From IMG/VR virus record IMGVR_UViG_3300045988_182734, positions 1 to 64,000 of that record: DNA of 64,000 nucleotides. The stretch is one strand, 5' to 3'. This DNA is from a virus. The position numbers were made by a program, and so were the translations under genes. Positions 12,352 through 50,827 of the stretch are shown here, one piece after another. The notes under the pieces were generated by a model, which worked only from the letters and a program-made list of their open reading frames with translations, ran no database searches and was not told where the DNA came from. The number at the start of each line of letters is the position of its first letter. Position 1 is the stretch's first letter.

Positions 12352-12364
12352 ATCTTCTTTAAGC

Positions 12365-12395
12365 TGTCCGCAATCACGCGGGCGGTTTTTTTGCT
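12365..12395 (+). terminator. Intrinsic terminator
   Basis: CCGC-aatcac-GCGGGCGG followed by TTTTTTT. Confidence 0.5.
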
Positions 12396-12398
12396 TTG

Positions 12399-12426
12399 TT
12401 GCAAAATTGTGCGAATTGCAGACAAT
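12399..12426 (+). promoter_or_regulatory. Conserved-family promoter (TTGCAA-16-GACAAT)
   Basis: Spacer AATTGTGCGAATTGCA. Confidence 0.5.
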
Positions 12427-12509
12427 CAGAGTTAGAAAACAGGGCAAAGGAGCTGAGTACCATCTCAAAGTTTGCAAGCAAAAAGCTGATTGAGCGAAAT
12501 CGCAATATC

Positions 12510-12977
12510 ATGAAAGACTACGGAAACGGCTATTCCATTGAGGAGCTTGCCGCAAAATACAGGTTGAGCGTCCGTACATGCTATCGAGCGTTAGACGACG
12601 CGAAACAGGAGGCCAGAATTCAGTTGGCGCAGGTAGAGGATGCCAGGAAAGCCGAAATCCTTGCCGCATACAAAAATAGTGTTCCTCTCAAGGAAATGAT
12701 TGCGAAATTTCATGTGACAGAAGGGTATTGCAGCATGGTTGCCGATAATGCCGGGCTCACTGAAAACCGTAGAAATGAGCGCATCAAAATTCGGCAGAAA
12801 CCCCGCAATGAGAATATCTTTCGAGAATATGAGAGCGGCGTGCCGGTGCAGAAGCTATCCGAAAAATATCAGCTCTCGGTTCCGGGCATTTACAAAGTGA
12901 TTCAAAGAGTCAGAAAGCAGAAGGAGGCGATGAGTCTTGCAATGGATTGTCAAACAAACCAAATCGAAGGGGTATGA
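12510..12977 (+). CDS. Tandem helix-turn-helix repeat protein (3 HTH units)
   Basis: Repeats of the form KDYGNGYSIEELAAKYRLSVRTCYRAL. Start is uncertain; the ORF opens at 12396. Confidence 0.55.
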   Translation: MKDYGNGYSIEELAAKYRLSVRTCYRALDDAKQEARIQLAQVEDARKAEILAAYKNSVPLKEMIAKFHVTEGYCSMVADNAGLTENRRNERIKIRQKPRNENIFREYESGVPVQKLSEKYQLSVPGIYKVIQRVRKQKEAMSLAMDCQTNQIEGV

Positions 12978-30955: not shown

Positions 30956-32116
30956 ATGAAATTCAAACACAATCCATTTCGGAGCACGGCGGCAATCATC
31001 GCTGCGCTCTTTGCACTCAGCTTCACCGGCTGCGGTCAGAGTCCGATAATCTCGGAATGTCCATCCAGTATCGGGGTTGTCTCGGAAAGCGCTGCAAGCA
31101 GCGAGCAGACAACTGGCGGTTCGGTGGACGGCAGCTTTACGATTCACTTTATAGACGTAGGGCAGGCGGATTCCGCCCTTATCACCTGCGACGGCCACAC
31201 AATGCTTATTGATGGCGGCAATGTCGATGATTCTAACCTCTTATACTCTGTTATGCAGCGAGAAACCGATGGACACCTGGATTATGTCGTTGGGACTCAC
31301 GCGCACGAAGACCACATCGGCGGCTTGTCTGGTGCTTTTGAAGCCGTTACTGCGGACATGACTCTATGCCCTGTGACAGAATACGACAGCAAGGCTTTTC
31401 GGAACTTTGCAAGCCACGCGGAACAAAAAGGCGGAGGCATCACGATACCGGATGTGGGTGAAACCTACACTCTGGGGGAAGCGGAATTCACGATAGTTGG
31501 TGTTAATTCTGTTCCCGATGATACGAACAATGCATCGATTGTTCTGCGCATCGTTTATGGGGATACTTCGTTCCTCTTTACTGGTGATGCTGAACAGGAA
31601 GCCGAAGGTGTGATACTTGCATCGGGACAAGACATTCAGTCAACAGTTCTGAAAGTAGGTCATCACGGCTCAAGCACATCTACCTCAGAGGCTTTTCTGG
31701 ACGCAGTGAATCCGACCTATGCTGTGATTTCCTGTGGGGCAGGGAACAACTATGGCCACCCGCATCAGGAAACACTCGACAAGCTGCAAAACAAGGGTGT
31801 TGAGGTTTATCGCACAGACCTGTTGGGCGATATCTATTGTACCTCGGATGGCAAAGAGGTAAGTTTCACTACCGGAGAATATCATGATGAGAATCGGATT
31901 GAAGCGGGTTCTGCTGCAAATTCCGAGGATGAACAGGACAATGCCTCGCTTGTCATAGAAGAAACATACGTTTTGAACACAAGTACCATGAAGTTTCACA
32001 AACCCGATTGCTCTGTAGTCGAGTCCATGAGTCAAAAGAATAGAATCGACTATATGGGGCCCCGCGATGAGCTCATCCAGGAAGGGTATTCGGCGTGCGG
32101 GATTTGCAAACCATAA
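30956..32116 (+). CDS. Lipoprotein with metallo-beta-lactamase fold (ComEC-C-like) and C-terminal Cys-containing domain
   Basis: RBS AAAGGAG. Lipobox FALSFTGC. Motif VVGTHAHEDHIGGL. C-terminal HKPDC...CGIC. Confidence 0.75.
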   Translation: MKFKHNPFRSTAAIIAALFALSFTGCGQSPIISECPSSIGVVSESAASSEQTTGGSVDGSFTIHFIDVGQADSALITCDGHTMLIDGGNVDDSNLLYSVMQRETDGHLDYVVGTHAHEDHIGGLSGAFEAVTADMTLCPVTEYDSKAFRNFASHAEQKGGGITIPDVGETYTLGEAEFTIVGVNSVPDDTNNASIVLRIVYGDTSFLFTGDAEQEAEGVILASGQDIQSTVLKVGHHGSSTSTSEAFLDAVNPTYAVISCGAGNNYGHPHQETLDKLQNKGVEVYRTDLLGDIYCTSDGKEVSFTTGEYHDENRIEAGSAANSEDEQDNASLVIEETYVLNTSTMKFHKPDCSVVESMSQKNRIDYMGPRDELIQEGYSACGICKP

Positions 32117-36594: not shown

Positions 36595-37040
36595 CTGAAA
36601 CTGCAACCTACAGCAAAAACGATGTCTTTTATACCTGCAGCCTGATTGAATATATCGGCCGCGTTACGAAGAATCATCGCAAGGATGTGGTTTCTGCTCT
36701 TGGCACAAACGGAGTCAAGGCAATTCTCGACTCAGCGGATGTGTTTCACTGCCAGAGCTTTGAGCAATCTGCCGATGAAATTTGTGAGCTTTTTCCTGTG
36801 CCGGAAGGAACGTATGATACGGTGTCTAACTGCCACTACAAGGTTCCATCTTATACAGATATCGGAAAAGTGTACCAGCGCATCATCTTTGACTGTACTA
36901 GCACTCCTGGTGTCCAGGATGTAATTGATGTATTTTCCTCGTTCATTAGCGATGACATCTCAGATTTTAATACTGCAACTTACTATTGTAATCCGAGCTA
37001 TTTGTACCACTCATACAAGGCCGGAAAACTACTGGATTGA
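36591..37040 (+). CDS. DUF3791 family protein (usual partner of DUF3990)
   Basis: ATGA overlap with the upstream gene. Conserved DUF3990-DUF3791 gene pair. Confidence 0.55.
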   Translation: MTETATYSKNDVFYTCSLIEYIGRVTKNHRKDVVSALGTNGVKAILDSADVFHCQSFEQSADEICELFPVPEGTYDTVSNCHYKVPSYTDIGKVYQRIIFDCTSTPGVQDVIDVFSSFISDDISDFNTATYYCNPSYLYHSYKAGKLLD

Positions 37041-37137
37041 TTTTCAAAAGCAATAGCAATCGAGACCACTGCCCCGAAAAGGGTAGTGGTCTTGTTTTTT
37101 GCACAATACTTACCATAAATTACCAGAAAGAAAAACA

Positions 37138-37165
37138 TTGTGTATCTGTGCGAATTGCATATAAT
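37138..37165 (+). promoter_or_regulatory. Conserved-family promoter (TTGTGT-16-TATAAT)
   Basis: Spacer ATCTGTGCGAATTGCA. Confidence 0.5.
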
Positions 37166-37277
37166 ACAAAATATAGAACGAAAGGCATCAAAAAACATCG
37201 TTGGTCGGGCAAAATCCGACCGAAAGGCTAGGGCGGGCTCAGTTTTGAACCTGCTCTTTCTTTTTATCGGAGGCTTT

Positions 37278-37805
37278 ATGTCAAACAAAGAAGAACGCAT
37301 GAACCGCAATAAAAGCATCATCGAAGATTACAAAAATGGAAAGTCGATTTTGGAAATCGCGAGGGAATACAATCTTTCAGAAACAATGTGCTACAAGATT
37401 CTAAAAGGCACGCAGGAGCCGCCTCGTTGTTTTGAAAAAAAGAGGAAGAGACTTACCACTCGAAATGAGCAAATTGTTAAACAGTATAAAGGCGGTATGA
37501 CGGCCAGAGAATTGGGCAAGATGTACGGCATTTCCATGCAGCGTATTTATGCAATCTTGCATTCGAGCGGAGAGTACGAAAGCCAAAAATACAATCATAT
37601 TGAAACGGCTCTCAAAAAAGAGAAAAAGATGCGGAACCAAACTTTTCTTGATGCTTACAAGAAAAATCCTCAAAAATCGATTATCGAGTTGAGCAGGGAG
37701 GTAAATATCAGCCCTTCACTAGGTTACCTTATCCTTCATCAAAATGGGATTTACCAGTATAACGTAAAAGCCAGAGCTAAGGAGAATAGCGAAAATGCCG
37801 ATTAA
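37278..37805 (+). CDS. Tandem-HTH-repeat protein (3 units)
   Basis: RBS GGAGG. Repeats IEDYKNGKSILEIAREYNLSETMCYKIL. Upstream part of the ORF overlaps the promoter. Confidence 0.65.
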   Translation: MSNKEERMNRNKSIIEDYKNGKSILEIAREYNLSETMCYKILKGTQEPPRCFEKKRKRLTTRNEQIVKQYKGGMTARELGKMYGISMQRIYAILHSSGEYESQKYNHIETALKKEKKMRNQTFLDAYKKNPQKSIIELSREVNISPSLGYLILHQNGIYQYNVKARAKENSENAD

Positions 37806-38313
37806 CAAGATTACCCACGTGTGTCTAACTCATGACAAAGTCAGAGCACGAAATGAAAAGATGCTGGAGGATGCCAAGAACGGTATGTCCCAGGAACAGC
37901 TGGCTGAAAAGTATCAAATCTGTGTTTCTACTGTCCGATATAGTCTGAAGGACTTTTACGAAGAACGGGCCCGGCAGAGGAAAGCAAAAAAGGAAGTCTG
38001 GCAAACCCAGATGATTCACGAATATGAGATGGGCGCGAAATCTCCGGAGCTTCAGGAAAAATACGGCATCAGTGGAACGCTCTTTTATCGGATTCTTCAT
38101 GCGCACGGAAAGAATGGCCGACAAATCCACAGCCAAAACCGTATCGAGACTGGCAAGAAAAGAAACGCCGAGATGGTCAGGAAATACAAAAACGGCGTTT
38201 CTGTCAAAGAGCTTGCGGAAGAATACGGGCTCAAAAAGGGAAGCGTATATCGCGCCATGAAGCGGTATAGTCCAGGCCCAGGGAAAAGTAAAAGTTGTCA
38301 AAGTGAGGAATAA
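37795..38313 (+). CDS. Tandem-HTH-repeat protein (3 units)
   Basis: RBS AGGAG. Overlaps the previous stop. Repeats EDAKNGMSQEQLAEKYQICVSTVRYSL. Confidence 0.65.
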   Translation: MPINKITHVCLTHDKVRARNEKMLEDAKNGMSQEQLAEKYQICVSTVRYSLKDFYEERARQRKAKKEVWQTQMIHEYEMGAKSPELQEKYGISGTLFYRILHAHGKNGRQIHSQNRIETGKKRNAEMVRKYKNGVSVKELAEEYGLKKGSVYRAMKRYSPGPGKSKSCQSEE

Positions 38314-38317
38314 TTGC

Positions 38318-39271
38318 ATGGCTGCATCAAAGAAAGATGTTGCGAAGCAGCAGGTCAAAGAAGACCGCGAAAAGGTTCGGGAAATGTATCTTTCTGGCAA
38401 AACTGTCAAGGAAATCGCCAAGGAAACGTATTTTTCAAGCTCTTATTGCTATGCCATGGTGAGAGACCTAGCAAAAGAAAAGAATCTTGCAAAGAAAGCA
38501 AAAAGAGCACCTCTCGACGAAGCTATGATTCAAGATGCGAAAGCCGAGATGACGGTTGCTGAAATCGCAAAGAAGCATGGCGTGACCTATCAGCAGTGCT
38601 ACTATACTGTTTCTGAATACGCTCAAGCTACGATTAAGAAGAACAAGAAAAAGCAGTCTGCTGCCACGAAAGTTCGCAATGCGGCTATGTTGGAAGATGC
38701 GAAAGCCGGAATGACAGATAAGGAAATCGCCAAAAAATACTTTTTGTCTCGAAGCAGTGTCCGTACCGTCCTTGCAGGGCATCTACATACAAATTCCAAA
38801 AAGTTGGATGAAAGGCGCAAGGCGATTCTTGCGGATTATGAGGCAGGAACGTCCTCAAAAGACATCTGTGAGAAATACGGTATTTCAAAATCCACTCTAT
38901 ACAAGGACATGCGCCAAATTGGAAAAACCTGTCAGGAATACTATCACAAGGCGCTGAAAGACAAGACCAATCAAAGGAATTCCGATATTCGAAGCAAAAT
39001 CGAAAGAGGGGTCTCGGTCAGCACTATTGCCAAGGAATACGGAATCTCTAAAACGGCGATTTATGAAACCTTTCATCAGGAAAATGTCAGAGCTGGAATT
39101 TTACAGAAACGCGGCCGTCCGCGAAAAAACACGGAACGTAATGCACTGATTGCTAAACGCCACAGGGAAGGCGAGGCAATACAGGCACTTGCTACCGAAT
39201 ATAATCTCTCTGTTTCGACGGTAAACACTATTTGCAGTAGAAACAAAAATCAGAATATAGCATCATATTAA
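38318..39271 (+). CDS. Tandem-HTH-repeat protein (6 units)
   Basis: RBS GTGAGGAATAATTGC. Six ~45-aa repeats of G.(S/T)..EIAK.Y..S...(Y/V). Confidence 0.65.
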   Translation: MAASKKDVAKQQVKEDREKVREMYLSGKTVKEIAKETYFSSSYCYAMVRDLAKEKNLAKKAKRAPLDEAMIQDAKAEMTVAEIAKKHGVTYQQCYYTVSEYAQATIKKNKKKQSAATKVRNAAMLEDAKAGMTDKEIAKKYFLSRSSVRTVLAGHLHTNSKKLDERRKAILADYEAGTSSKDICEKYGISKSTLYKDMRQIGKTCQEYYHKALKDKTNQRNSDIRSKIERGVSVSTIAKEYGISKTAIYETFHQENVRAGILQKRGRPRKNTERNALIAKRHREGEAIQALATEYNLSVSTVNTICSRNKNQNIASY

Positions 39272-39316
39272 CAGGCTGCCATTTGGCGGCCTATTTCTTT
39301 TTTAGGAGGAAATGAA

Positions 39317-40231
39317 ATGACAGACGACGTACGAAATTTGATTCGATTTGTGGTGGATGGCGATATCCGAAATGCACAGACTCAGTGCCGAATCATGCTT
39401 GAGAAAAACGTTCCCGAAAAGGATGCCAGATTCAAGGAAAATGAGCTTCGAAAACTGAACCTTCTGAAACCGGAACTCATTCAGCTGCCTGCCAACCTGG
39501 AAAACCTTTTGATTGCGGAGGACGCTACAAATTTCCCGGAAAGCCGGTTCCTGCTCCGTGAGGAAGAAGAGGCGGTTATCAACAAGCTCCTGGCTACCAG
39601 AAAAGCAGCTCTTGCCATCAAGGAATTGGGCATTCACTATACCTGCTCTTTGCTTTTGACGGGGCTTCCTGGCGTCGGCAAGACCGAATTGGCCCGTTAC
39701 ATTGCACACAAGGCAAATTTGCCGTTTGTTTTCCTGAAATTCTCTGGCTTGGTTGATTCTGCTCTTGGTCGTACACAGCAGAATATCGGCAGAGTATTTG
39801 ACTACGCAAAACGCACGCCCTGCGTTCTCTGCGTTGACGAAATTGATGCCATCGGAATGTGCCGTGGCGGCCGCGATGATGTTGCTGAAATGAGCCGTGT
39901 CACCATTGCTTTGATGCAGGAATTGGACCGGCTCCCAAACGATGTTATTCTCATCGGCACCACTAACCGCGTCGATAATTTGGACGAAGCCCTGATTCGC
40001 CGGTTTACTTTCAAACACCGGGTCAAGCCTCTGGGTGATGACGACATGAAAGAACTGTGCAAGAAGTTCCTTGCTTCGGCAGACTACCCCTTCACGGAAT
40101 CTGAACTTGACGAGCTCTGTCATTTGCTCCGTGAGCAGCGGACTGCCAGCGCTGTGGTCAATGCTTGTACAGAACGTATCGTTGCACATATCGTATCGCG
40201 GCTGCCTGAAAGCTCGGCAGATACCCTGTAA
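39317..40231 (+). CDS. AAA+ ATPase (classical FtsH/CDC48-type AAA module)
   Basis: RBS GGAGG. Walker A GLPGVGKT, Walker B VLCVDEIDA, sensor GTTNRVDNLDEALIRRF. Confidence 0.8.
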   Translation: MTDDVRNLIRFVVDGDIRNAQTQCRIMLEKNVPEKDARFKENELRKLNLLKPELIQLPANLENLLIAEDATNFPESRFLLREEEEAVINKLLATRKAALAIKELGIHYTCSLLLTGLPGVGKTELARYIAHKANLPFVFLKFSGLVDSALGRTQQNIGRVFDYAKRTPCVLCVDEIDAIGMCRGGRDDVAEMSRVTIALMQELDRLPNDVILIGTTNRVDNLDEALIRRFTFKHRVKPLGDDDMKELCKKFLASADYPFTESELDELCHLLREQRTASAVVNACTERIVAHIVSRLPESSADTL

Positions 40232-40236
40232 GACTA

Positions 40237-40934
40237 TGGTAGCCTGGGAAGAAGGCCCTCGTCAGTTCAAAATGTCCAAGCAGCTGGATGAGGGGAAGTT
40301 TGGAGAAGACTTGGCTCGCAAATTCCTCAATGACCCGATTATCAAAGTAAATCATGGCATTAGCCATTACGATGACGTGACTCAGGACAGAACGTACCAG
40401 GACAAAGATACGGATTTCATTGTCTGGAAAAATAACGGCAAAACCTTTGGTTTGGAAGCAAAAGTAGACAGTCACAATACCGGAAATCTCTACTTAGAGA
40501 CCTCAGTGGACTACTTCACCATGGTGCCGGACGCTCTGAACGAACAACGGGTAGCGCGGCAGTTTCGGGATGGCATCGACCCTTTATGGCACACCCCCGG
40601 CTGGGTATACCGGAGTGGTGCAGACCAGATTTTTTATTATTTCAAGCCTACGCAGCTGCTTTACATCTTTTCCCGCGTGGATGTCTGGTTCTACGCTGAA
40701 AAGCTTATGCGCGGTGGAATCCATCTCGACCCAGAAATCAGAAAACCGAAGATGTATTCGGCCGAAAACACCAGCGAACGTGATAGCTCAACGCTCTTCT
40801 TTGCTAACGGCTTATGCGTGAATGCCGAGCAGACATACAAGGCTTTAGGAGCTCAAAAAAGAGTCATCAAATACCAGGTTGACAACCCCGATTCAGACGT
40901 TCCAACGTTCAGCTTTTGCCCTTTCAAATTATGA
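40237..40934 (+). CDS. Putative PD-(D/E)xK-fold nuclease-like protein
   Basis: Starts 5 nt after the AAA gene stop. DKDTDFIVWK...GLEAKVD resembles a D-x(n)-E-x-K catalytic core. Weak call. Confidence 0.45.
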
Positions 40935-41018
40935 ATTTTTCGCTAACAATCGTCAAAAAATCGCACTTCAGTCTGACGGAAGAGTATAATTAAAGTATGG
41001 AAAGAGAGGACAAAAATC

Positions 41019-41447
41019 ATGAACCAAATCAACGTTGTGACGATTGGAAAACTCATTGAAGCACATCGAGACGGTGACGAGCAGAAGTTCAAAGCATACG
41101 TCGATTTTATTGTCAAAGCCTACGAAGAGCAGGAGAATGACCGTGCCGCACGAATCATTAGAAGCAGCTATACGGGTGATTATGGCGAGCAGGGGAAGGT
41201 CGTTCTGGATGAAGCAACAGAACAGACTACATACTACGAGACAGGCTGGTACGAGCCTGAAATCTTAGGCTCTGGTGGTTCCTATCGCGGAGTTACAAAA
41301 GCAAGCTCAGAAGAAGAAGCGTTGCAGCGGCTGCAAAAACACGCCGCAAACTATGCACAGCGAATCACTGTATATAAGAAAGACGGCAAAACCATAAAGC
41401 GGGAAATTGCCGAGTATGACCAATTAGAAAAGAAGTGGAGGACATGA
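41019..41447 (+). CDS. Hypothetical protein A1 (142 aa)
   Basis: RBS GAGAGGA. C-terminal 88 aa identical to A2. Confidence 0.65.
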   Translation: MNQINVVTIGKLIEAHRDGDEQKFKAYVDFIVKAYEEQENDRAARIIRSSYTGDYGEQGKVVLDEATEQTTYYETGWYEPEILGSGGSYRGVTKASSEEEALQRLQKHAANYAQRITVYKKDGKTIKREIAEYDQLEKKWRT

Positions 41448-41451
41448 TGAG

Positions 41452-41622
41452 ATGAAGTGGAATGTATTTTCTCTCGAAGCCGTCAAAACGGCATTGGAAC
41501 CAAAGTTTGTGCTGGAGAAAGTCCGTTATGTGACGGACCACGAAGAGTACGGTGCAGGCGAGTCTACACGCCTTGTTTTCCGCAACGTGGAAGAAAAGCT
41601 GTTTCAGGGGGTGATTTCGTGA
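41452..41622 (+). pseudogene. Truncated 5' copy of gene B created by tandem duplication (57 codons)
   Basis: The first ~45 codons match the start of 42052..42732, then the sequence diverges and stops. Confidence 0.5.
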
Positions 41623-42047
41623 ATAATGTAAGCGCTGTGGCTATCGGAATGCTCATCGCCGCGCATCGTGAAGGCTACGAGGAAAAATTCAAGGCTTATG
41701 TCGAGCTCATTGCCGAAACCTATGAGCAGCAGGGAAATGACCATGCCGCTAACATCATCCGCAGCTACTATACGGGTGATTATGGCGAGCAGGGGAAGGT
41801 CGTTCTGGATGAAGCAACAGAACAGACTACATACTACGAGACAGGCTGGTACGAGCCTGAAATCTTAGGCTCTGGTGGTTCCTATCGCGGAGTTACAAAA
41901 GCAAGCTCAGAAGAAGAAGCGTTGCAGCGGCTGCAAAAACACGCCGCAAACTATGCACAGCGAATCACTGTATATAAGAAAGACGGCAAAACCATAAAGC
42001 GGGAAATTGCCGAGTATGACCAATTAGAAAAGAAGTGGAGGACATGA
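41619..42047 (+). CDS. Hypothetical protein A2 (paralog of A1, GTG start)
   Basis: RBS GGGGGTGA before GTG. N-terminal 55 aa ~60% identical to A1, remainder identical. Confidence 0.6.
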   Translation: MNNVSAVAIGMLIAAHREGYEEKFKAYVELIAETYEQQGNDHAANIIRSYYTGDYGEQGKVVLDEATEQTTYYETGWYEPEILGSGGSYRGVTKASSEEEALQRLQKHAANYAQRITVYKKDGKTIKREIAEYDQLEKKWRT

Positions 42048-42051
42048 TGAG

Positions 42052-42732
42052 ATGAAGTGGAATGTATTTTCTCTCGAAGCCGTCAAAACGGCATTGGAAC
42101 CAAAGTTTGTGCTGGAGAAAGTCCGTTATGTGACGGACGACGAAGAGTACGGTGAAAGTGAGTCTACACGCCTTGTTTTCCGCAATGTGGAAGAGATGCC
42201 GGAAATCGACCACATCGAACGGACCATCTCCACATTCATTCATGACACCTATGTTCACTTCAAAGAAAAAAACATCAAACCGATACGCCTTTGGCAGGAT
42301 AACCTCAACGAAAGTGAAGACCATATCCGCTATTCCACAAACCATCTTGTTTCACCACCGCTGGGGCTCATTGGCAAAACATACATCTCCGATGAGCGCG
42401 ACTTCCACAAGTGGCTGGTAGCCCAAGGAGGGACCGAAGTTCTTGCGAGAGCGTCCGTCACCATTGATGTTGATGTGATTTACGCCTATGACAATGTCGA
42501 TAAGGTTGAGAAAAGTTCCGAAGACGGCGAGGTACATGGCGTTCTCATCAACAGTACGATGTATCTGCGCGAATCGGAAATCAAACAGGTTGCTCAGCTT
42601 ATTAAAGATGAAAAGCTCCGTAACCGCGTATTGACGCTGATGCGCTCTCATCGCCGTATTGTATCGGCTCCCGAAAAAGAAAATCGCAATATTCGGGAAA
42701 TCGCATCCGCACAGATGCTGGGTCAGGGGTGA
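42052..42732 (+). CDS. Hypothetical protein B (226 aa)
   Basis: RBS GGAGGA. Full-length copy. Confidence 0.65.
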   Translation: MKWNVFSLEAVKTALEPKFVLEKVRYVTDDEEYGESESTRLVFRNVEEMPEIDHIERTISTFIHDTYVHFKEKNIKPIRLWQDNLNESEDHIRYSTNHLVSPPLGLIGKTYISDERDFHKWLVAQGGTEVLARASVTIDVDVIYAYDNVDKVEKSSEDGEVHGVLINSTMYLRESEIKQVAQLIKDEKLRNRVLTLMRSHRRIVSAPEKENRNIREIASAQMLGQG

Positions 42733-43526: not shown

Positions 43527-43791
43527 ACAATTGTTCTCAGGAAGAGAAACGGCTCCTGAGACATCAAGGTTTTCCTTTCCCCAATCTTGGTCGCATGGCT
43601 TCATTTGAGCTGACACAGGTGAAGCGTGAAAATCATCCGTTTCATAGTAATATCCTTCCTTTCATACCTCTTTATTTCCCATTTGGCGCGGGTAACTCCG
43701 CGCCAGCCGTCCAAGCAAACAGCCTCCACGTGGTGGACGGTGGGCAACAGATGTTTCCGTGTTCCGGGCATCTGGCTAATGTTTGTATTTG

Positions 43792-43867
43792 CTGGTTTAG
43801 CTCAGCTGGTAGAGCAACTGATTTGTAATCAGTCGGTCATCGGTTCAAGTCCGATTTCCAGCTCCAG
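43792..43867 (+). tRNA. tRNA-Thr (anticodon TGT)
   Basis: Cloverleaf with D-arm TAGCTCAGCTGGTAGAGCA, anticodon loop TTTGTAA, T-loop TTCAAGT, CCA encoded. Two U-U mismatches at the base of the acceptor stem. Confidence 0.65.
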
Positions 43868-44340
43868 ACGCTATCCGTTGGATGTATCGAAATCACATGA
43901 TACGATGCTATACACAACATCTGGCGGACAGCATGCCACCCATTAAGGCGGCCTCCTCGTGGCGGGTGGCGGACAGCGGCTCTTGCGGCTGCTGACGAAT
44001 GTCTTAGAAGCATGCAAACGTACGAGCATCCCCGTCAAGTCGGGGCGCATCCAGACGCGACACAGCCGTAAAGGCGAGATTGCTGCACGGCAACTGGTAA
44101 GTTTCGCCGCAGTCTCACACACAGCCCAACGACAACCGTTAACCCGATTTGACAGGGAATCAACGACAGGGCTCAAAATTTGAAGTTGACCAACACCCAA
44201 GCGCTTTCTTGGATTCTCGCGTATCGTCAACGATGAGGTTCGCAAGATTGTCAGATGGTGTGAAGATGACATCCGGGGATGACGACCTACTAAACGGATG
44301 TCATGGCGGGGCTAAGTGAGGGTTCACCCGCAATCTTATG

Positions 44341-44415
44341 CAGGTATCGTATAACGGCTAATACTCCGCCCCTCCAAGGCGGAGACGCGGGTTCGACCCC
44401 CGCTACTTGCTCCAC
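44341..44415 (+). tRNA. tRNA-Gly (anticodon TCC) with non-canonical C33
   Basis: Very similar overall to E. coli tRNA-Gly(UCC). 7-bp anticodon stem with loop CCTCCAA (C at position 33 instead of U). Confidence 0.6.
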
Positions 44416-44690
44416 ACGTCGCAGTCACCGTACGCCACGACGTTAAACTTGGTGAGCATGGTCCACTTGTGGTCCGCTGTCGAATTGCTAATGGACAGCC
44501 TCAAAACGAATAGGCAAACAGGTGCTGTGCCTGAAAGTATTCGAAAGTCCCGGTGTTAGTCGCGAATAAGACCGGAAAACGGTGAAGAGGGTACAATACA
44601 GAATCTATCGGCGTGGCTACCGAATGGTGCTGGACGCGGGGTTGGCTTCCTCGCTGAAGGGGTGATAACCAGCATAAAACACCCTGCCGT

Positions 44691-44766
44691 GCTAGTGTAG
44701 CTCAGTTGGTAGAGCAGCTGATTCGTAATCAGCAGGCCGTCAGTTCAAATCTGACTATTAGCCCCA
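44691..44766 (+). tRNA. tRNA-Thr (anticodon CGT)
   Basis: Anticodon stem GCTGA/TCAGC, loop TTCGTAA, T-loop TTCAAAT, CCA encoded. Confidence 0.75.
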
Positions 44767-44796
44767 TTACCCGATGAAACAATAAATAGAAAGGAG

Positions 44797-45189
44797 ATGA
44801 AACTTATGGAACAGGCAATTATCAATGTTGAAGGTACGACTACCATAGAAACCGCTGCAGCGGCAAAAAAGCTGATTGAAATGTTTGGCAACCGGAACAT
44901 CCGCGCCATCGCTGTCAACCGTGTAAACGACAAGAGCGACGAGGTCATTGTTGAACTCGATTTCGTTCCCGGTTTGGCACCGCATCTGCACGGCTTCACG
45001 CTTCAGGTTAATGGCTTGACCTGTGGTTATGCTGGTACTGGTCCTTCCAATCTGTATGAAGTCCTGCAGGCGGCTGGCGTGAGTGAAGCTCAGGTAGCAC
45101 GCGAGGACATCACTCAGAAGAGCACAAAATCCATTCCCCTGCGCCTGGAACGCGCCGTGACTCAGTACGGTGACTTCCAGTTTGCGTAA
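44797..45189 (+). CDS. Hypothetical protein (130 aa)
   Basis: RBS AAAGGAG. Followed by hairpin GGCGGGCTTGACCCGCC. Confidence 0.6.
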   Translation: MKLMEQAIINVEGTTTIETAAAAKKLIEMFGNRNIRAIAVNRVNDKSDEVIVELDFVPGLAPHLHGFTLQVNGLTCGYAGTGPSNLYEVLQAAGVSEAQVAREDITQKSTKSIPLRLERAVTQYGDFQFA

Positions 45190-45219
45190 CGCTATTTGGC
45201 GGGCTTGACCCGCCATCAT

Positions 45220-45295
45220 GGAGGGATAGCTTAGCTGGATAAAGCACCTGCCGCAAAGCAGGGTATCGATGGTTCGAGGCCATCTCCCTTCTCCA
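45220..45295 (+). tRNA. tRNA-like gene with aberrant anticodon loop (6-nt CGCAAA or 8-nt CCGCAAAG); isotype unassigned
   Basis: Good acceptor (GGAGGGA/TCCCTTC), D-arm (GCTT AGCTGGATA AAGC), T-arm (GATGG TTCGAGG CCATC) and CCA, but the anticodon arm cannot form a 5+7+5 structure. Confidence 0.4.
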
Positions 45296-45654
45296 TCCAG
45301 ACACCCTTTCGCTTCCTTTCGCCAAAGGTATCTGGGGTATTGTACTGCATTACGTGTAGTACGGCCAATCAGGCGCGGAACTCCGAAACCATACCACGAA
45401 GAATTTTATCCTCTCCGCGCAGCATGGACATGCGATTTTACGGGGATGAATTCAAACCGAAATTGTGTCGAGTGGCGAAGACGGTTGCGGCACTGGCGAA
45501 GCACATATCTGCTTCGTCAACCATCCATGAGAAAGCCTCCACGTGGCAGATGGTGGGCAACGCAGCAATGCTGCGGCTGATTTCTTTCAAACCGGTATCT
45601 GAATAAATGCAGATAAATAGACGAAAAAATCAAAAAAGCAAAGGAGTACACAGC

Positions 45655-46773
45655 ATGAGTAATCAGAAAATCATCAAAGCAATCGCAGGGATTGCAGCAG
45701 CCGGTATGATGGCAACTTGTCTGCCTGTCGCAGCATTCGCAGCCACCGGCGACACCTATCATTTCTCTTTCAGCAACGGTTCTTCCCAGGACCTGGCTCC
45801 GGGCGGCTCTATGACGTTCCCGGCAAGCCAGTATGACTACGGTTACTGGATTACCCTGCAGGGCCACGGCGGCTACACCTACAACTACTATCCCGGCGAC
45901 ACTCTGCCGTACGATGCAGTTGACCAGTGGTTCACCGCTGACGGCATCACTTCCTGCTATGCGGCCGAAGGTAATCCGCGTTCCATCACCATCAACTATC
46001 AGATTGACGGTAACACTGTGCTGACCGAAACTGACACCGCCACTTTCCCCGGCAGCGTTGATGGTCAGAGCGTTGAAGCCTGGACCACCGATTCCGGCGA
46101 TACTTACACCGCGTCCAGCAAGAGCCTGAACCATGACCGCCTGTTCTACTACCTGGGCGATGACATTCACGACAATGTCCTGACCCTGAAAGCCACTACT
46201 GCATCCACTCCCGATGACGGCAAGGATGACAACAAGGGCGATGACAAGGGCGATGTCACCAACCCTGACGATAAGGGCGACAATACCGGCGACAGCGGCA
46301 CCACCACTCCCGATGACAAGGGCGACGTAGTGGCCCCCGATAAGGACAACACCGGTAAGGATAACACTTCTACCGGCTCCAACAAGGGCAACGGTACTAC
46401 CACTACTCCGACCGCTCCTCGCAAAAACGTTGAAGTCTCTGAGCACGGTGAAATTGCCGCCGCCATTGCCAATGGCACCTGGGGCAATGAGTACACCGTC
46501 TGCACCAGCTGTGGCTATCACAACTGGACCCGCAAGGGTAACGTTTACGTCTGTGACCATTGTGGTCACGAAGTCCTGACTGTCAAGGGCGCTGATGGCG
46601 TCAAGGGTTATGCTGGCACTCTGGCTGGCAATGAACCCCAGTACGCTTCTACCTCTGAAGCTCAGGCTGCTGCCGAAAAGCGTGAAGCTGCTTATGCCGC
46701 TTCTATCGCTGCTCTGCAGGCACAGGTTGCCGCTCGTGAAGCTGCTTATGCCGCTTCCCTGGGCATCCACTAA
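45655..46773 (+). CDS. Secreted protein with Asp/Gly/Lys-rich linker and C-terminal Cys4 ribbon-like motif
   Basis: RBS AAAGGAG. Signal peptide ending AAFAATG. CTSCGYHNW...CDHCGHE. Confidence 0.7.
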   Translation: MSNQKIIKAIAGIAAAGMMATCLPVAAFAATGDTYHFSFSNGSSQDLAPGGSMTFPASQYDYGYWITLQGHGGYTYNYYPGDTLPYDAVDQWFTADGITSCYAAEGNPRSITINYQIDGNTVLTETDTATFPGSVDGQSVEAWTTDSGDTYTASSKSLNHDRLFYYLGDDIHDNVLTLKATTASTPDDGKDDNKGDDKGDVTNPDDKGDNTGDSGTTTPDDKGDVVAPDKDNTGKDNTSTGSNKGNGTTTTPTAPRKNVEVSEHGEIAAAIANGTWGNEYTVCTSCGYHNWTRKGNVYVCDHCGHEVLTVKGADGVKGYAGTLAGNEPQYASTSEAQAAAEKREAAYAASIAALQAQVAAREAAYAASLGIH

Positions 46774-46814
46774 TTTGCCATCCTCTGACGATATCCGATA
46801 ATTTTCTCCTTGCT

Positions 46815-46848
46815 GTGGGGCGGGGCTTCGGCTCCGCCCCATCCTTTT
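46815..46848 (+). terminator. Intrinsic terminator
   Basis: GGGGCGGGGC-ttcg-GCTCCGCCCC then ATCCTTTTTT. Confidence 0.65.
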
Positions 46849-46850
46849 TT

Positions 46851-46939
46851 GGTCAGGTGTCCGAGCGGTTTAAGGAACTGGTCTTGAAAACCAGCGACGC
46901 CAAAAACGTCCGTGGGTTCGAATCCCACTCTGACCGCCA
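46851..46939 (+). tRNA. tRNA-Ser (anticodon TGA)
   Basis: Type II tRNA with long variable arm, anticodon loop CTTGAAA, G73, CCA encoded. Confidence 0.8.
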
Positions 46940-46941
46940 TG

Positions 46942-46975
46942 TTTGCCGGGGCTTCCCGGCTTTTTGTTTTTTTGT
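46942..46975 (+). terminator. Intrinsic terminator
   Basis: GCCGGGGC-ttc-CCGGC then TTTTTGTTTTTTT. Confidence 0.6.
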
Positions 46976-47007
46976 AAGTGACACAAGGAAACAGATTGCT
47001 GTATTGA

Positions 47008-47664
47008 ATGAGGCAATGTATACTAAAGAAAAAGGATAAGGCAGGAAAGGACTATTTCCGAGCACACGTTGCGGCTGTAGCGGAAGGTGTAAAAGGGGAC
47101 CCTGTTGCTGAAACTGTGGCATTTCTGCATGATACTGTCGAAGATACGTCCATCACAATAGAAGACATCAGAACGGGGTTTCCAAAAGAAGTTGCTGACG
47201 CTGTAAGTGCGTTGACCCATAGCAAGGGTATATCGTACGCTGAATATCTTTGGTATATTCAGCAAAATTCTATTGCTGTCAAAGTAAAGCTCTCGGACCT
47301 GCGCAGCAATATGGACTTAACCAGGCTCCCTCACGCTCCAACCAAAAAAGACGCGGAAAGAACCAGAAAATACAAGCGGACATATACGATTCTATCGTCG
47401 GCGAATGGTGTAAACGCTATCAATCCGTATGCGCTGTACGACTACTTGCTGGCAAGAAACTGGAGTGTTGATAGGATAAGCACAAGGACACCCGTTCTGG
47501 AAGCACCAGGCGGCTATGCTGAAATCATGGTGCCCTTCGACCTGGCTTTGGCTGACTACGAGCCCAAGGTGGCTAACGCTTTAGGCGCGTTGTGCTCGTA
47601 TGAGGGCATACCGCTCTCGGATGCGATAGCACGGATTGCGGCTTGGAAACCAGACATGCACTGA
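47008..47664 (+). CDS. HD-domain protein, RelA/SpoT-type (p)ppGpp hydrolase-like (small alarmone hydrolase candidate)
   Basis: AFLHDTVEDT matches the SpoT/Mesh1 HD signature LHDxVEDT. Start uncertain. Confidence 0.5.
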   Translation: MRQCILKKKDKAGKDYFRAHVAAVAEGVKGDPVAETVAFLHDTVEDTSITIEDIRTGFPKEVADAVSALTHSKGISYAEYLWYIQQNSIAVKVKLSDLRSNMDLTRLPHAPTKKDAERTRKYKRTYTILSSANGVNAINPYALYDYLLARNWSVDRISTRTPVLEAPGGYAEIMVPFDLALADYEPKVANALGALCSYEGIPLSDAIARIAAWKPDMH

Positions 47665-47752
47665 GTACAAACCTGATATTGTAAACGTCAGCCGGGAAAA
47701 CCCACGACTAAAGCCGTTGGATGAAAGGCATTCAAGTAAAATAAAAAAAGTT

Positions 47753-47783
47753 GCTGTCTATCTTCGGATAGGCAGCTTTTTTG
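47753..47783 (+). terminator. Intrinsic terminator
   Basis: GCTGTCTATC-ttcg-GATAGGCAGC then TTTTTT. Confidence 0.6.
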
Positions 47784-47784
47784 G

Positions 47785-47812
47785 TTGCGTTAATGTGCGA
47801 AATGGATAAATT
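47785..47812 (+). promoter_or_regulatory. Conserved-family promoter (TTGCGT-16-TAAATT)
   Basis: Spacer TAATGTGCGAAATGGA. Upstream of tnpB. Confidence 0.45.
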
Positions 47813-47837
47813 AAATAATAGAAGGTGGTGATAAGCA

Positions 47838-48983
47838 ATGCCTATGCAAAAACTAAATAGAGCAATAAAATATCGTGCATATCCTACACCTGAGCAGCAG
47901 GTGTTGCTTTCTAAAACCTTCGGCTGCGTTCGCTTTGTCTGGAATCATATGCTGACGGACGCGCGGCAATTTTTGAATGAAGCAGGGACGTTTTTTATTC
48001 CAACTCCTGCTAAATACAAAAAAGAGTTTCCGTTTCTGAAAGAAGTGGATAGCCTTGCACTCGCTAATGCACAGCTTGATTTGAAAGAAGCACGTAAGAA
48101 GCATCGAGAGAACCCTAAAAGCTGTGGCGCTCCCAAACTCAAGAGTAAGCGCAAAAGTAAAATGTCTTATACAACAAACACTCATTCATACAAAACGAAT
48201 GATGGCCATGTTGTACATACAATCGCGCTTGGATATGACTCCATCAGGTTACCAAAAATTGGATGGGTAAAAATCAACAAGCATCGTGAGCCGGAAGCCA
48301 ACTGGGTGCTGAAAAGTGCTACCGTAAGCTGTACCCGCAGCGGCAAATACTTTATTTCGCTGCTGTACGAGTTTGAGAAAGACATTCAGTCCATTAAGCC
48401 TACAAAAGAGACTTCTCTTGGGTTGGATTACTCTTCTCACGACTTCTATGTTGACAGCAACGGCAATGTGGCCAACTATCCAAGATTCTACCGTCAGAGT
48501 GAAGCAAAACTTGCAAGGGCACAGCGTAGGCTATCGCGTATGCAGTTTGGCTCCCATCACTATGACAAACAGCTTTATAGAGCTCGAGTCCTTCAGGAAC
48601 ATGTTGTCAACCAGCGCAAGAACTTCTGCCATACGGTAAGTACTGCGATAGCCAAACAGTATGATGCCGTATTTGTAGAAGATATCAATTTGCGCGGTTT
48701 GGCTGGTTCTCTGAAATTAGGGAAATCCACTAACGACAATGGCTTCGGTATGTTTCGCACGATGTTGGAGTATAAGCTTGCATCGCAGGGAAAGACCTTT
48801 GCCAAAATCGATAAGTGGTATCCTTCCAGCAAAACTTGCAGCGTGTGCGGCTTTATAAAAGATGACCTCACACTTGCTGACCGCAGCTGGACATGCAGTG
48901 CTTGTGGAACCACACACAACCGTGACCACAATGCTGCCATTAACATTCGCACTGTAGGATTATTATGGCTCTATCCCGCGTAG
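47838..48983 (+). CDS. tnpB: TnpB (IS200/IS605-family OrfB, RuvC-like RNA-guided nuclease)
   Basis: YRAYPTPEQQVLLSKTFGCVRFVWN N-terminus, zinc finger CSVCG...CSACG, RuvC-III HNRDHNAAINI. Confidence 0.9.
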   Translation: MPMQKLNRAIKYRAYPTPEQQVLLSKTFGCVRFVWNHMLTDARQFLNEAGTFFIPTPAKYKKEFPFLKEVDSLALANAQLDLKEARKKHRENPKSCGAPKLKSKRKSKMSYTTNTHSYKTNDGHVVHTIALGYDSIRLPKIGWVKINKHREPEANWVLKSATVSCTRSGKYFISLLYEFEKDIQSIKPTKETSLGLDYSSHDFYVDSNGNVANYPRFYRQSEAKLARAQRRLSRMQFGSHHYDKQLYRARVLQEHVVNQRKNFCHTVSTAIAKQYDAVFVEDINLRGLAGSLKLGKSTNDNGFGMFRTMLEYKLASQGKTFAKIDKWYPSSKTCSVCGFIKDDLTLADRSWTCSACGTTHNRDHNAAINIRTVGLLWLYPA

Positions 48984-49200
48984 TCCATTCCACCCCCGCT
49001 ATGCCGCTTGCAACGGCGGTGAAAGCATACTGTACTCGGTCGCACGGACGGAAACCGTGCCTAACAGTCCGTCGAGTATGAATTTATGGAGTCCTGCGGG
49101 ACTTCAAGCCCCCACGTTAAGGTGGGGGTAGTTGACTCCGTTTGTCGCAGGTTCAAATCCTGTACAACCCGCCATATGCTCCAGTGGCGAAACTGGCAAA
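48984..49200 (+). ncRNA. Candidate omega-RNA / right-end structured RNA of the TnpB element, with tRNA-like T-arm and CCA-like 3' end
   Basis: Long-range stem GGAGTC..GACTCC enclosing perfect hairpin CCCCCAC-gttaag-GTGGGGG, followed by GCAGGTTCAAATCCTGTACAACCCGCCA. Confidence 0.3.
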
Positions 49201-49239
49201 CGCGACGGTTTTAAGTCCCCCGGCCGGAGCATTTATCAT

Positions 49240-49315
49240 AGGGGTATAGCTCAAGTGGTAGAGCAGCGGTCTCCAAAACCGCTTGTTGCATGTTCGAGTC
49301 GTGTTACCCCTGCCA
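49240..49315 (+). tRNA. tRNA-Trp (anticodon CCA)
   Basis: Acceptor AGGGGTA/TACCCCT, anticodon loop CTCCAAA, T-loop TTCGAGT, G73, CCA encoded. Confidence 0.8.
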
Positions 49316-49320
49316 CAATA

Positions 49321-49352
49321 AGAAAAGCCGTCCTCACATAAGAGGCGGCTTT
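49321..49352 (+). terminator. Intrinsic terminator
   Basis: AAGCCGTCCTC-acataa-GAGGCGGCTT then TTTGTTTTG. Confidence 0.5.
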
Positions 49353-49684
49353 TTGTTTTGAAGAGTATACAGACCAAAAAACTAAACCACAAGTTGATTG
49401 CGAACTTGCGAAAACATGGTATAATAATATCAGAACGAAACGAAAGGAGATACCCCAAAATGCTGTGCAACACTGTTAATGTCATGTCGTATGAGTATAG
49501 TTACGAATATTCTGAGTTCATGTCCTTTGAACGCAGTTTTATTTCTCATACTCCTCGACAGGCAAAAACAGACCATGTACAGATGCGGTGCGTCTTCTAA
49601 GCGATAACTGCATGTCATAGCTGCTTGTCGAGATTTCGGCAGGCAGCTTTTTTGTTGCCTGCAATACAGAAAGGCAGCAAGAAA

Positions 49685-49906
49685 ATGAACGTTCCTACTA
49701 TCGATATTCAGAAAACTGGTGCCAACATTAAGACGCTGCGAAAAGCAGCAGGTATCAAGGTGAAAGATGTGGCGGATACACTCGGCGTATCCACGCAGGC
49801 AGTTGCCAAATGGCAAGCTGGAACCGCGCTTCCAACCATTGATAACCTTGTGATATTGGCAGCGATGCTGGATACCAAGATAGATGACATCTTAGTCATC
49901 GCATAA
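49685..49906 (+). CDS. XRE-family HTH transcriptional regulator (73 aa)
   Basis: LRKAAGIKVKDVADTLGVSTQAVAKWQAG Cro/C1-type HTH. Start at internal ATG of the 49625 ORF. Confidence 0.7.
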   Translation: MNVPTIDIQKTGANIKTLRKAAGIKVKDVADTLGVSTQAVAKWQAGTALPTIDNLVILAAMLDTKIDDILVIA

Positions 49907-49933
49907 TCCCCGCCGCATGATGCGGCATCATAT

Positions 49934-50010
49934 GGCCTGCTCGACGAATAGGGTAAGTCATCAGTTTCTCAGACTGAAGGTTGTGGGTTCGACTCCCACG
50001 CAGGTCACCA
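49934..50010 (+). tRNA. tRNA-Glu (anticodon CTC)
   Basis: Acceptor GGCCTGC/GCAGGTC, anticodon stem TCAGT/ACTGA, loop TTCTCAG, T-loop TTCGACT, CCA encoded. Confidence 0.65.
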
Positions 50011-50013
50011 TAT

Positions 50014-50089
50014 GCTTCTGTAGCTCAGTTGGTAGAGCAGTGGTCTGAAGAACCGCGTGCAGTTGGTTCAATTCCAACCGGAAGCACCA
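50014..50089 (+). tRNA. tRNA-Phe (anticodon GAA)
   Basis: Acceptor GCTTCTG/CGGAAGC, anticodon loop CTGAAGA, T-loop TTCAATT, CCA encoded. Confidence 0.8.
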
Positions 50090-50092
50090 TAT

Positions 50093-50177
50093 GCGTCGGT
50101 ATGCAAGTGGATAAAGCAGGCAGTCTGTAAAACTGTTCCGTTACGGTTCGCTGGTTCGAATCCAGTCCGACACACCA
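50093..50177 (+). tRNA. tRNA-Tyr (anticodon GTA)
   Basis: Type II with long variable arm. Anticodon stem GCAGT/ACTGT, loop CTGTAAA. One C-A mismatch at acceptor pair 2-71. Confidence 0.75.
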
Positions 50178-50181
50178 ATAT

Positions 50182-50255
50182 GGCCCCTTCGACAAATTGG
50201 TCCAAGTCACCACGCTTTCACCGTGGAGTTAGCAGTTCGAGTCTGCTAGGGGTCA
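50182..50255 (+). tRNA. tRNA-Glu (anticodon TTC), CCA not encoded
   Basis: GGCCCCTTCG... start as in bacterial tRNA-Glu. Anticodon stem CCACG/CGTGG, loop CTTTCAC, T-loop TTCGAGT. Confidence 0.7.
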
Positions 50256-50287
50256 CTACGTCGCACCTACGTTAAAAGGTGCATTAT

Positions 50288-50377: not shown

Positions 50378-50380
50378 TCT

Positions 50381-50566: not shown

Positions 50567-50827
50567 TTAATTATACATGCCTTTAGAGTACGGCAAATAG
50601 CTCCAAACAGTATTGGTTTTTACACCCAATTCTTCTGCAATTTCAGGAACTGACATACCGTTCGCACGCAGCTTCCCGATTTTTTCTGATGTTTCATCTG
50701 ACCAGGCCCCGGCCGTAATCAGTATTTTGCGCACTTTCTGCAATGAGATGCCTGCACGTTTGGCAATGGTTCTTCTAGGTATACCTTGCTCATGGAGCCG
50801 GAGAACCGTCTGTATTGTCGCGTCCAT
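50567..50827 (-). CDS. Small tandem-HTH protein (2 units), same repeat type as the 37278-39271 family
   Basis: GIPRRTIAKRAGISLQKVRKIL and GMSVPEIAEELGVKTNTVWSYL. RBS GAGGT. Confidence 0.6.
   Translation of the reverse strand: MDATIQTVLRLHEQGIPRRTIAKRAGISLQKVRKILITAGAWSDETSEKIGKLRANGMSVPEIAEELGVKTNTVWSYLPYSKGMYN

Follow-up and report, generated by a model that had tools for sequence, protein, structure and literature searches.

The 64,000-nucleotide stretch of viral DNA analyzed here (the window; positions 1 to 64,000 of IMG/VR record IMGVR_UViG_3300045988_182734) contains, at positions 37,278 to 40,934, five consecutive genes that encode three proteins made of tandem helix-turn-helix (HTH) units, an AAA+ ATPase and a nuclease-like protein. 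On balance, we favor the interpretation that this cassette is a variable, probably early, accessory island in which modular HTH-array DNA-binding regulators are joined by an orphan, truncated IetA-like ATPase and a stand-alone nuclease, organized as separable sets. In the first set, one sigma-70-like promoter would drive three paralogous genes for arrays of three, three and six units (HTH3a, HTH3b and HTH6). The second set would begin after an intrinsic-terminator-like hairpin and consist of the orphan ATPase gene and, 4 nt later, the nuclease gene. All five genes are located on the plus strand, and their coordinates agree with the gene calls on a 138,207-bp ENA contig.

Table 1. Positions of the cassette genes, their candidate expression signals and the two unlinked HTH-array paralogues in the window (aa, amino acids; HMM, hidden Markov model).
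Feature	Position	Strand	Details
Intrinsic-terminator-like hairpin	37061..37094	+	After the 149-aa gene; 14-bp stem and T-run; -28.4 kcal/mol, z = -6.5
Sigma-70-like promoter of the HTH trio (predicted)	37138..37165	+	TTGTGT-N16-TATAAT; spacer holds the conserved TGTGCGAATTGCA (37147-37159)
HTH3a	37278..37805	+	175 aa; 3 tandem three-helix HTH units; Pfam HTH_28 1.8e-11, Mor 7e-10; unit HMM, 3 units
HTH3b	37795..38313	+	172 aa; 3 tandem HTH units; Pfam HTH_28 2.5e-14, HTH_23 3e-14; unit HMM, 3 units
HTH6	38318..39271	+	317 aa; 6 tandem HTH units; Pfam HTH_23 1.8e-25 (5 stretches); unit HMM, 6 units
Terminator-like hairpin and T-run	39273..39292	+	Between HTH6 and the AAA gene; -15.2 kcal/mol, z = -4.6
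Short classic AAA+ ATPase, IetA-like	39317..40231	+	304 aa; PF00004 1.1e-28, phrog_3757 1e-59, PADLOC IetA 2.2e-55
Stand-alone PD-(D/E)xK-fold nuclease-like protein	40236..40934	+	232 aa; 4-nt gap from the AAA stop codon
HTH4	12396..12977	+	Unlinked paralogue; 3 HTH units; called ATG at 12510, unit 1 starts upstream; Pfam Mor 1.1e-12
HTH5	50567..50827	-	Unlinked 86-aa paralogue; 2 HTH units; beside the tRNA cluster

The variability of the region was established by comparison with related viral contigs. Clade 1 comprises 64 near-identical IMG/VR contigs, with AAA proteins that are 95–98% identical, and its phage group also has a sister clade of 16 IMG/VR contigs, in which the AAA protein is 64% identical. 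Genes flanking the cassette are well conserved between the sister clade and the window (radical-SAM gene, 94% identical; 477-aa gene, 85%; 142-aa gene, 84%; 226-aa gene, 89%), whereas the cassette genes themselves have diverged strongly (HTH3a, 29%; HTH3b, ~35%; AAA, 64%; nuclease, 34%). In the sister clade, the DUF3990 and 149-aa genes are replaced, a 235-aa lipoprotein-like open reading frame (ORF; locus L072, 5216–5923) stands in place of the six-unit HTH gene, and an ORF with two copies of the DUF4379 treble-clef zinc finger (L072 6875–7432, Pfam 2e-21) is inserted between AAA and nuclease, overlapping each of the two genes. A diverged cassette between conserved flanks indicates a variable island with two alleles, both of which keep the order HTH, HTH, hairpin, AAA, nuclease.

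Outside this phage group, the components were found apart. The order of trio, ATPase and nuclease recurs only in the one sister clade. More distant AAA orthologues, at 36–56% identity, were studied in 10 loci (nine contigs from metagenome-assembled genomes, MAGs, of Clostridia and one GenBank phage record) with up to ~8 kb on each side, and these loci contained no member of the nuclease family and no HTH array; the sole match to an array unit was a marginal single unit in locus L007 (E = 0.0036). The genes downstream of these orthologues are mutually unrelated and encode a methyltransferase, an AAA_23 protein, a metallophosphatase and small unknown proteins. Four informative contexts of distant nuclease homologues, all phage-like, contained no classic AAA gene, and the AAA subfamily and the nuclease family are thus neighbors in 0 of 14 loci outside the phage group. 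A search for the HTH-array, AAA, nuclease order in other genomes had been proposed along with the original prediction for this DNA, and it fails beyond the phage group, where the 10 AAA loci and the four nuclease loci all lack the expected partners. Because each component occurs without the others outside one closely related phage group, the HTH arrays, ATPase and nuclease are not a conserved defense system. Their association appears to be lineage-specific and fits neighboring but separable modules, and it may include a locally evolved partnership of the ATPase with the nuclease.

Database proteins in which AAA is fused to the nuclease (P0025 and P0036) or HTH6 to AAA (P0199 and P0201) were considered as evidence of functional linkage and rejected, as they are internal deletions. 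The junctions of P0025 and P0201 lie at short shared residues or microhomology (e.g., ...LREQR joined to VARRY...), and both AAA-nuclease deletions remove the catalytic core of the nuclease.

The layout of the predicted expression signals also divides the cassette. The hairpin upstream of HTH3a probably closes the preceding transcription unit, and it is followed by the promoter of the trio, which was identified by reading the sequence and was not listed by a pattern scanner. The 13-mer in its spacer, TGTGCGAATTGCA, occurs on the plus strand of the window at 7597, 9779, 12408, 13618, 16763, 21845 and 37147 and, in a weaker form, at 47794, within the register TTGC-N5-TGTGCGAATTGCA-N-(A/T)(C/T)AAT. 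When up to two mismatches were allowed, 12 matches were obtained compared with 3.0 expected, a count that none of 100 shuffles reached, and no 11-mer of the window other than the core of this 13-mer is repeated five times. Six of the eight motif sites are preceded by a terminator-like hairpin and T-run, the 13-mer is conserved in the sister clade, and the same promoter motif precedes both the trio and the unlinked HTH4 gene (12408–12420). We interpret these sites as one promoter class, probably early, that would serve the trio and at least seven other transcription units; the conserved spacer points to an operator or to a special element for promoter recognition.

The second hairpin is located directly after the HTH6 stop codon and 25 nt before the AAA start codon, and an equivalent hairpin sits directly upstream of the AAA gene in the sister clade (L072 5953–5980, -21.9 kcal/mol). 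The stretch from the hairpin to the AAA gene accommodates no promoter. Expression of the ATPase and nuclease is likely to depend on read-through and would thus be separate, in level or in timing, from that of the HTH genes. The trio had been described as contiguous and co-oriented with the ATPase and nuclease genes. Gene order and strand bear this out, but the intervening hairpin means that the five genes do not form a simple uninterrupted operon.

The original prediction also proposed that five proteins of the window consist almost entirely of tandem HTH units, up to six per protein, and here the multi-stretch Pfam matches and the unit HMM agree. The HMM was built from 17 units delimited by eye, for which it is circular, and it detected 6+3+3+3+2 = 17 units in exactly five ORFs, among them 12363–12974 (+) and 50570–50845 (-). 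A six-frame translation of the window yielded no sixth family member with this HMM (next best ORF, E = 0.14). HTH6 additionally matched Pfam HTH_28 (7.9e-24, five stretches) and HTH_7 (2.6e-24, four stretches), and the start of HTH3b overlaps the end of HTH3a by 11 nt. The consensus of the units, RN..I...Y..G.S..E[IL]A..YG[IL]S...[VC]Y..L, contains the motif reported previously, G.S..EIA..Y..S...Y. Further members had been placed at 12510 and 50567, and both exist; however, the gene at 50567 is on the minus strand and encodes two units, and translation from the ATG at 12510 would remove helix 1 of the first unit of HTH4. A strong Shine-Dalgarno sequence, AGGAG (12448–12452), is followed in the HTH4 frame only by non-canonical codons (CTG at 12453, ATC at 12462), and HTH4 may have a non-ATG start or a truncated first unit.

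Natural variants show that the arrays are modular. Pairwise identity between units averages only 24% (maximum 46%), so the duplications that produced them must be old. In the three-unit proteins, the first, second and third units tend to resemble one another by position, which fits whole-gene duplication. Most clade 1 loci have the 3-3-6 layout (56 of 64), two have 3-3-5, and in a few, frameshifts or stop codons interrupt ORFs. When database homologues were aligned, the five-unit variants (263–264 aa) proved to have arisen by fusing units 2 and 3 precisely and in register; one such form represents 82 member sequences, and another is present in NCBI, JGI and ENA. One 321-aa database protein is an in-register chimera of HTH3a and HTH6 from which HTH3b has been deleted. 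These repeat variants and the chimera indicate that unit number and composition change in nature by recombination between units. The array family would thus evolve by duplication of whole genes combined with in-register loss, gain and exchange of units.

Taken singly, the HTH units are of an ordinary kind (Mor/HTH_23/HTH_7), and the one unusual feature is that they are strung together in arrays. The three-helix families matched were HTH_23, HTH_28, HTH_7 (resolvase) and sigma-70 region 4, and the most specific matches were to the C-terminal HTH of Mor (positions ~54–101 of 107) and of the CD3324 family (39–82 of 82). Matches to Mor (PF08765) had E values of 5e-7 to 1.1e-12, above the 24.9-bit cut-off. 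For CD3324 (NF040785, 82 positions), HTH6 reached a total of 81 bits (cut-off 65), but only as the sum of three stretches that each cover positions ~39–81. No array protein matched Mor profile positions 1–53, the N-terminal dimerization part. Because the N-terminal half of these profiles is never matched, the arrays are not Mor members in architecture and probably not CD3324 members: each unit is like the C-terminal DNA-binding HTH of the Mor/C activators and CD3324, but the arrays carry two to six units in one chain, whereas those proteins carry a single HTH. The best PHROG matches, phrog_836 and phrog_532, are annotated as "late transcriptional activator". Two separate stretches of each array protein matched phrog_1303 ("DNA binding protein"), a family with a function that is itself not experimentally established. 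Matches to the terminase small subunit families phrog_509, phrog_24579 and phrog_2538 were also obtained (1e-6 to 1e-10), but they are weak and cover one HTH stretch only, and the assignment of the HTH proteins as terminase small subunits was rejected.

The second-best NCBIfam family was Cbp1, at 47.6 bits compared with a cut-off of 140. Cbp1 has three imperfect repeats and binds CRISPR DNA repeats (PMC3597662). The AlphaFold2 model of HTH6 contains six helix-helix-helix units, several of them linked by one long continuous helix, with a predicted local distance difference test score of 76 and a predicted template modeling score of 0.29, the latter being expected for a beads-on-a-string model in which relative domain positions are undefined. 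When this model was compared with the PDB using Foldseek, nothing significant was found (best E = 0.13); weak partial matches were to Cbp2, AraC-type double HTH proteins, Tc3 transposase and the Pax5 paired domain. Like the arrays, Cbp1/Cbp2, paired-domain, Tc3, AraC and Myb-repeat proteins have tandem three-helix HTH domains in one polypeptide; theirs read adjacent DNA segments. The arrays differ from Cbp1/Cbp2-type proteins in having up to six units, five paralogues in one phage and scores far below the cut-offs; the Cbp1 equivalog match fails, and the resemblance is one of working principle only. A tblastn search with HTH6 against 50,697 GenBank phage records gave no match, and a single-unit alignment searched against a large protein collection returned short fragments only.

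By analogy with Cbp1/Cbp2, AraC-type, Tc3 and Pax5 proteins, the third helix of each unit would enter one major groove, and the array as a whole would read a long composite DNA site. Tandem linkage would then stand in for the dimerization domain used by the single-HTH relatives Mor and CD3324. The arrays are most likely to be sequence-specific binders of double-stranded DNA that act as phage transcription regulators or host-takeover factors.

The ATPase proved to be a stand-alone classical AAA protein, as had been proposed. The PF00004 match spans residues 112–235 and is above the gathering score, and GxxGxGKT (Walker A), DE[IF]DA (Walker B), the sensor-1 TN and the RRF arginine fingers are invariant in the alignment of orthologues. 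It also matches phrog_3757, a phage AAA ATPase family for which no function is established, over nearly its full length. The nearest named family, and the top match in both PADLOC and NCBIfam, is IetA; however, the NCBIfam IetA equivalog was matched at 168 bits compared with a cut-off of 510, and the family threshold was not passed. The PADLOC match covers only profile positions 64–305 of 374. Overall, the similarity to IetA ends at about position 305 of 367–374, and ~60–70 C-terminal profile positions are unmatched.

In IetAS (Gao_Iet), IetS is a protease toxin and IetA an ATPase antitoxin, and the anti-phage mechanism is unknown (PMC13069673). The window ATPase is like IetA in being a classic-clade AAA protein, and the two align over the N-terminal helical region and onward through the AAA lid. 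It differs in being phage-borne and in belonging to a subfamily that normally has no conserved partner, and a PD-(D/E)xK protein, instead of the IetS subtilase, is encoded downstream. Two canonical phage-borne IetA proteins, from Paenibacillus phage Yyerffej and Acutalibacteraceae phage NatCom_11578, were compared with the window ATPase and are 25–26% identical over the whole alignment and 31–33% identical in local matches. Both have an extra C-terminal HTH-like segment, and their genes are followed by a "peptidase domain" or Peptidase_S8 protein (Peptidase_S8 in NatCom_11578). These are true IetAS pairs; the window ATPase has neither the C-terminal segment nor a protease partner. On the source contig, no peptidase family, and hence no IetS (Peptidase_S8) partner, is recorded in the ~10 kb to each side. 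The C-terminal HTH-like segment of IetA was also considered as kin of the array units, but the unit HMM gave a generic score of ~4 bits that is unusable as evidence.

At residues 148–151, the window ATPase and its sister-clade orthologue read SALG, whereas all more distant orthologues have Tyr or His at the second position (SYLG/SHLG). From general knowledge of FtsH-type AAA proteins, we take this position to be pore loop 1. An aromatic residue in pore loop 1 (aromatic-hydrophobic-Gly) is needed for substrate threading, and the window ATPase has none at this position. The two SALG lineages are the only ones in which the ATPase is found next to the nuclease. The ATPase is predicted to be a protein-remodeling AAA hexamer of the IetA lineage that would act without a protease, and not a DNA motor.

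The last gene of the cassette had been suggested to encode a small PD-(D/E)xK-like protein, and fold comparison and the intact catalytic motif both agree with this assignment. None of the profile libraries searched (Pfam, PHROG, PADLOC and NCBIfam) recognizes the protein. An exhaustive phmmer search yielded 79 cluster representatives; the top-scoring ones are mostly fragments of the same protein, and ~50 are distant relatives of ~170–270 aa with 29–47% identity over the matched stretches. In a family alignment of 36 members that have 20–36% identity to the window protein, D60 and K76 never vary, conservation is 90% or higher at E24, D58 and E74, and N84 and E88 are also invariant or nearly so. 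Individual members weakly match NERD, PDDEXK_5, NOV_C and SfsA. The family profile found nothing among PDB sequences, and only fold comparison gave matches: a restriction-endonuclease-like alpha/beta core is present, and two junction resolvases, RecU and Hjc, are among the best structural matches. Other structural relatives are small uncharacterized proteins of many phages. The core fold and the E..D..ExK constellation are held in common with stand-alone PD-(D/E)xK nucleases such as RecU, Hjc, NERD, NOV_C and small type II restriction and homing endonucleases, and the protein is probably a stand-alone phage enzyme of this kind. In loci L175 and L176 (4001–8633), the distant nuclease homologue P0062 is encoded directly upstream of an AAA_33 kinase-like gene and type I-C cas7, cas5d and csd1, in what looks like a phage-borne CRISPR-Cas module.

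The interpretation as an accessory island of separable sets is helped by the occurrence in other phages of a canonical long IetA with a peptidase partner, which shows what a true IetAS layout looks like, and by the Apyc1-like metallo-beta-lactamase, AcrVA2-like and NADAR genes of the wider neighborhood, which are accessory and counter-defense-like. Several observations weigh against it. The order of HTH genes, ATPase and nuclease is kept in two island alleles that have diverged deeply, which could mean that the parts are functionally coupled and not independent. The AAA and nuclease genes are spaced as is typical of translational coupling, only 4 nt apart. Early timing is deduced only from the type of promoter and the position in the genome. 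Finally, no DNA target of the arrays was found: the search for repeats in the window gave only the promoter-spacer motif, with no notable tandem arrays and no other 11-mer present five or more times. The promoter-spacer motif was itself considered as a target and is an unlikely one, being kept in the sister clade, where the recognition helices are only ~30% identical.

Of the competing explanations, the best supported, although we consider it unlikely, is that the ATPase and nuclease form a two-gene phage-borne defense, superinfection-exclusion or toxin-antitoxin module in which the nuclease replaces IetS and the ATPase restrains or activates it. The original prediction likewise treated an ATPase next to a nuclease as an anti-phage architecture. 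In favor of such a module, the best matches of the ATPase are the IetA models (PADLOC, 2.2e-55, and NCBIfam), IetAS is a toxin-antitoxin and defense pair with the ATPase as antitoxin, and defense systems are known to swap modules (PMC13069673). The short gap between the two genes, the intact catalytic motif of the nuclease and the retention of the pair in the sister clade despite 64% and 34% identity are also consistent with a module. Set against this, the nuclease is missing from the 10 AAA loci and the AAA gene from the four nuclease loci, the pair is separated in the sister clade by the DUF4379 zinc-finger ORF, and the NCBIfam score reaches a third of the value required for IetA, with the IetA C-terminal segment missing. 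A check with PADLOC, as had been recommended, found no system model that fits; the IetS protease is absent, and the nuclease matches no PADLOC model. In sum, the similarity to IetA points only weakly to a defense system.

Somewhat less probable is a counter-defense role, in which the short AAA protein would be an orphan antitoxin mimic directed against IetS-type toxins of the host, or a remodeler of another host defense protein, and the nuclease an unrelated enzyme for host-DNA degradation or for recombination and resolution of branched DNA. The ATPase is the antitoxin in IetAS (PMC13069673), and this ~300-aa subfamily has no toxin partner in 10 of 10 other phage-like loci; the presence of Apyc1-like, AcrVA2-like and NADAR genes in the same window and of RecU and Hjc among the best structural matches of the nuclease would also suit such roles. 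However, identity to canonical IetA is low (25–26%, or 31–33% locally), the C-terminal HTH-like segment is absent, and the aromatic pore-loop residue is replaced (SALG in place of SYLG/SHLG). Orthologues elsewhere lie in replication and modification modules, which would fit a housekeeping phage role as well.

We hold as more doubtful again the idea that the tandem-HTH proteins work as a phage conflict module. They would be modular DNA readers, akin in logic to zinc-finger or transcription activator-like effector arrays, with a specificity of a few base pairs per unit; in-register exchange of units between paralogues, as in the natural five-unit variants and the HTH3a-HTH6 chimera, would give them lineage-specific targets and might redirect them to the DNA of the host or of rival elements, possibly together with the ATPase and nuclease. 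Least probable of all is a single five-gene system in which the HTH arrays target DNA in trans, as a substitute for the C-terminal HTH-like segment that ends both aligned canonical IetA proteins and is missing from the short AAA, and direct the ATPase and nuclease to DNA: the shared order of arrays, ATPase and nuclease in two deeply diverged alleles would agree with it, but in both clades the terminator-like hairpin sets the AAA gene apart from the HTH genes, the six-unit protein is absent from the sister clade (a lipoprotein-like ORF taking its place), two array paralogues are unlinked (at ~12.4 kb and ~50.6 kb), and the AAA orthologue loci are without arrays apart from the one marginal single-unit match (L007, E = 0.0036).

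Under the favored interpretation of an accessory island, each component is of a known kind (homeodomain-like HTH, classic AAA and PD-(D/E)xK), and it is their configuration that is unusual. A single phage has five paralogues, the largest with six units in tandem; in-register repeat variants occur naturally, and the family has no characterized homologue. The IetA-like ATPases, orphan and truncated, form a subfamily that is seen repeatedly in phage-like loci of Clostridia genomes. Should the arrays bind long composite sites, they would offer a compact example from nature of modular HTH-based DNA recognition that evolves by unit shuffling, with a bearing on phage gene regulation, host takeover and possibly the design of DNA binders. 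The orphan IetA-like subfamily in prophage-like loci of gut Clostridia offers an entry to the unknown mechanism of IetAS. The negative synteny result implies that, when an ATPase gene is found beside a nuclease gene in a phage, synteny should be tested before the two are called a defense system.

The window has ~47% G+C, and nearly all of its coding sequence is on the plus strand. It corresponds to one end of the 138,207-bp ENA metagenome contig, which encodes an identical AAA protein and is the longest of the 23 public metagenome contigs read that do so. A blastn search with positions 37000–41000 against the 50,697 GenBank phage records gave no match. The more distant AAA orthologues are located in MAGs of Oscillospiraceae, Faecousia, Ruminococcus and Lachnospiraceae; because these are gut Clostridia, the phage is probably a gut phage of at least 138 kb with a host in Clostridia.

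Elsewhere in the window, accessory, counter-defense-like genes are located in the same half of the genome: one for a metallo-beta-lactamase with a faint match to Anti-Pycsar Apyc1 (30956–32116), one for an AcrVA2-like protein (PF26125; 14269–15156), one for a NADAR-domain protein (18451–18903) and one for an HD_4 protein (47008–47664). Positions 8004–12351 contain a Band_7/flotillin gene and a VWA gene. Twelve tRNA genes are clustered at 43791–50468, with HTH5 beside them; for the tRNA at 45220–45295, ARAGORN returned an undetermined anticodon ("ca" at position 35). Just downstream of the cassette, positions 41019–42220 contain a tandem duplication of ~600 bp, in which the 142-aa ORF (41019–41447) and the next ORF (41457–42047) have an identical C-terminal half and a short ORF that starts MKWNVFSLEAVK... 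is also duplicated (41452 and 42052). An IS605-family TnpB gene is located at 47838–48983. In other strains, TnpB copies (L002–L004, 11957–13078) have been inserted downstream of the nuclease gene, at a distance of ~340 bp, and the DUF3990 and 149-aa genes are separated by an inserted IS110 transposase (L002 5730–6968); the edges of the island appear to be insertion hot spots.

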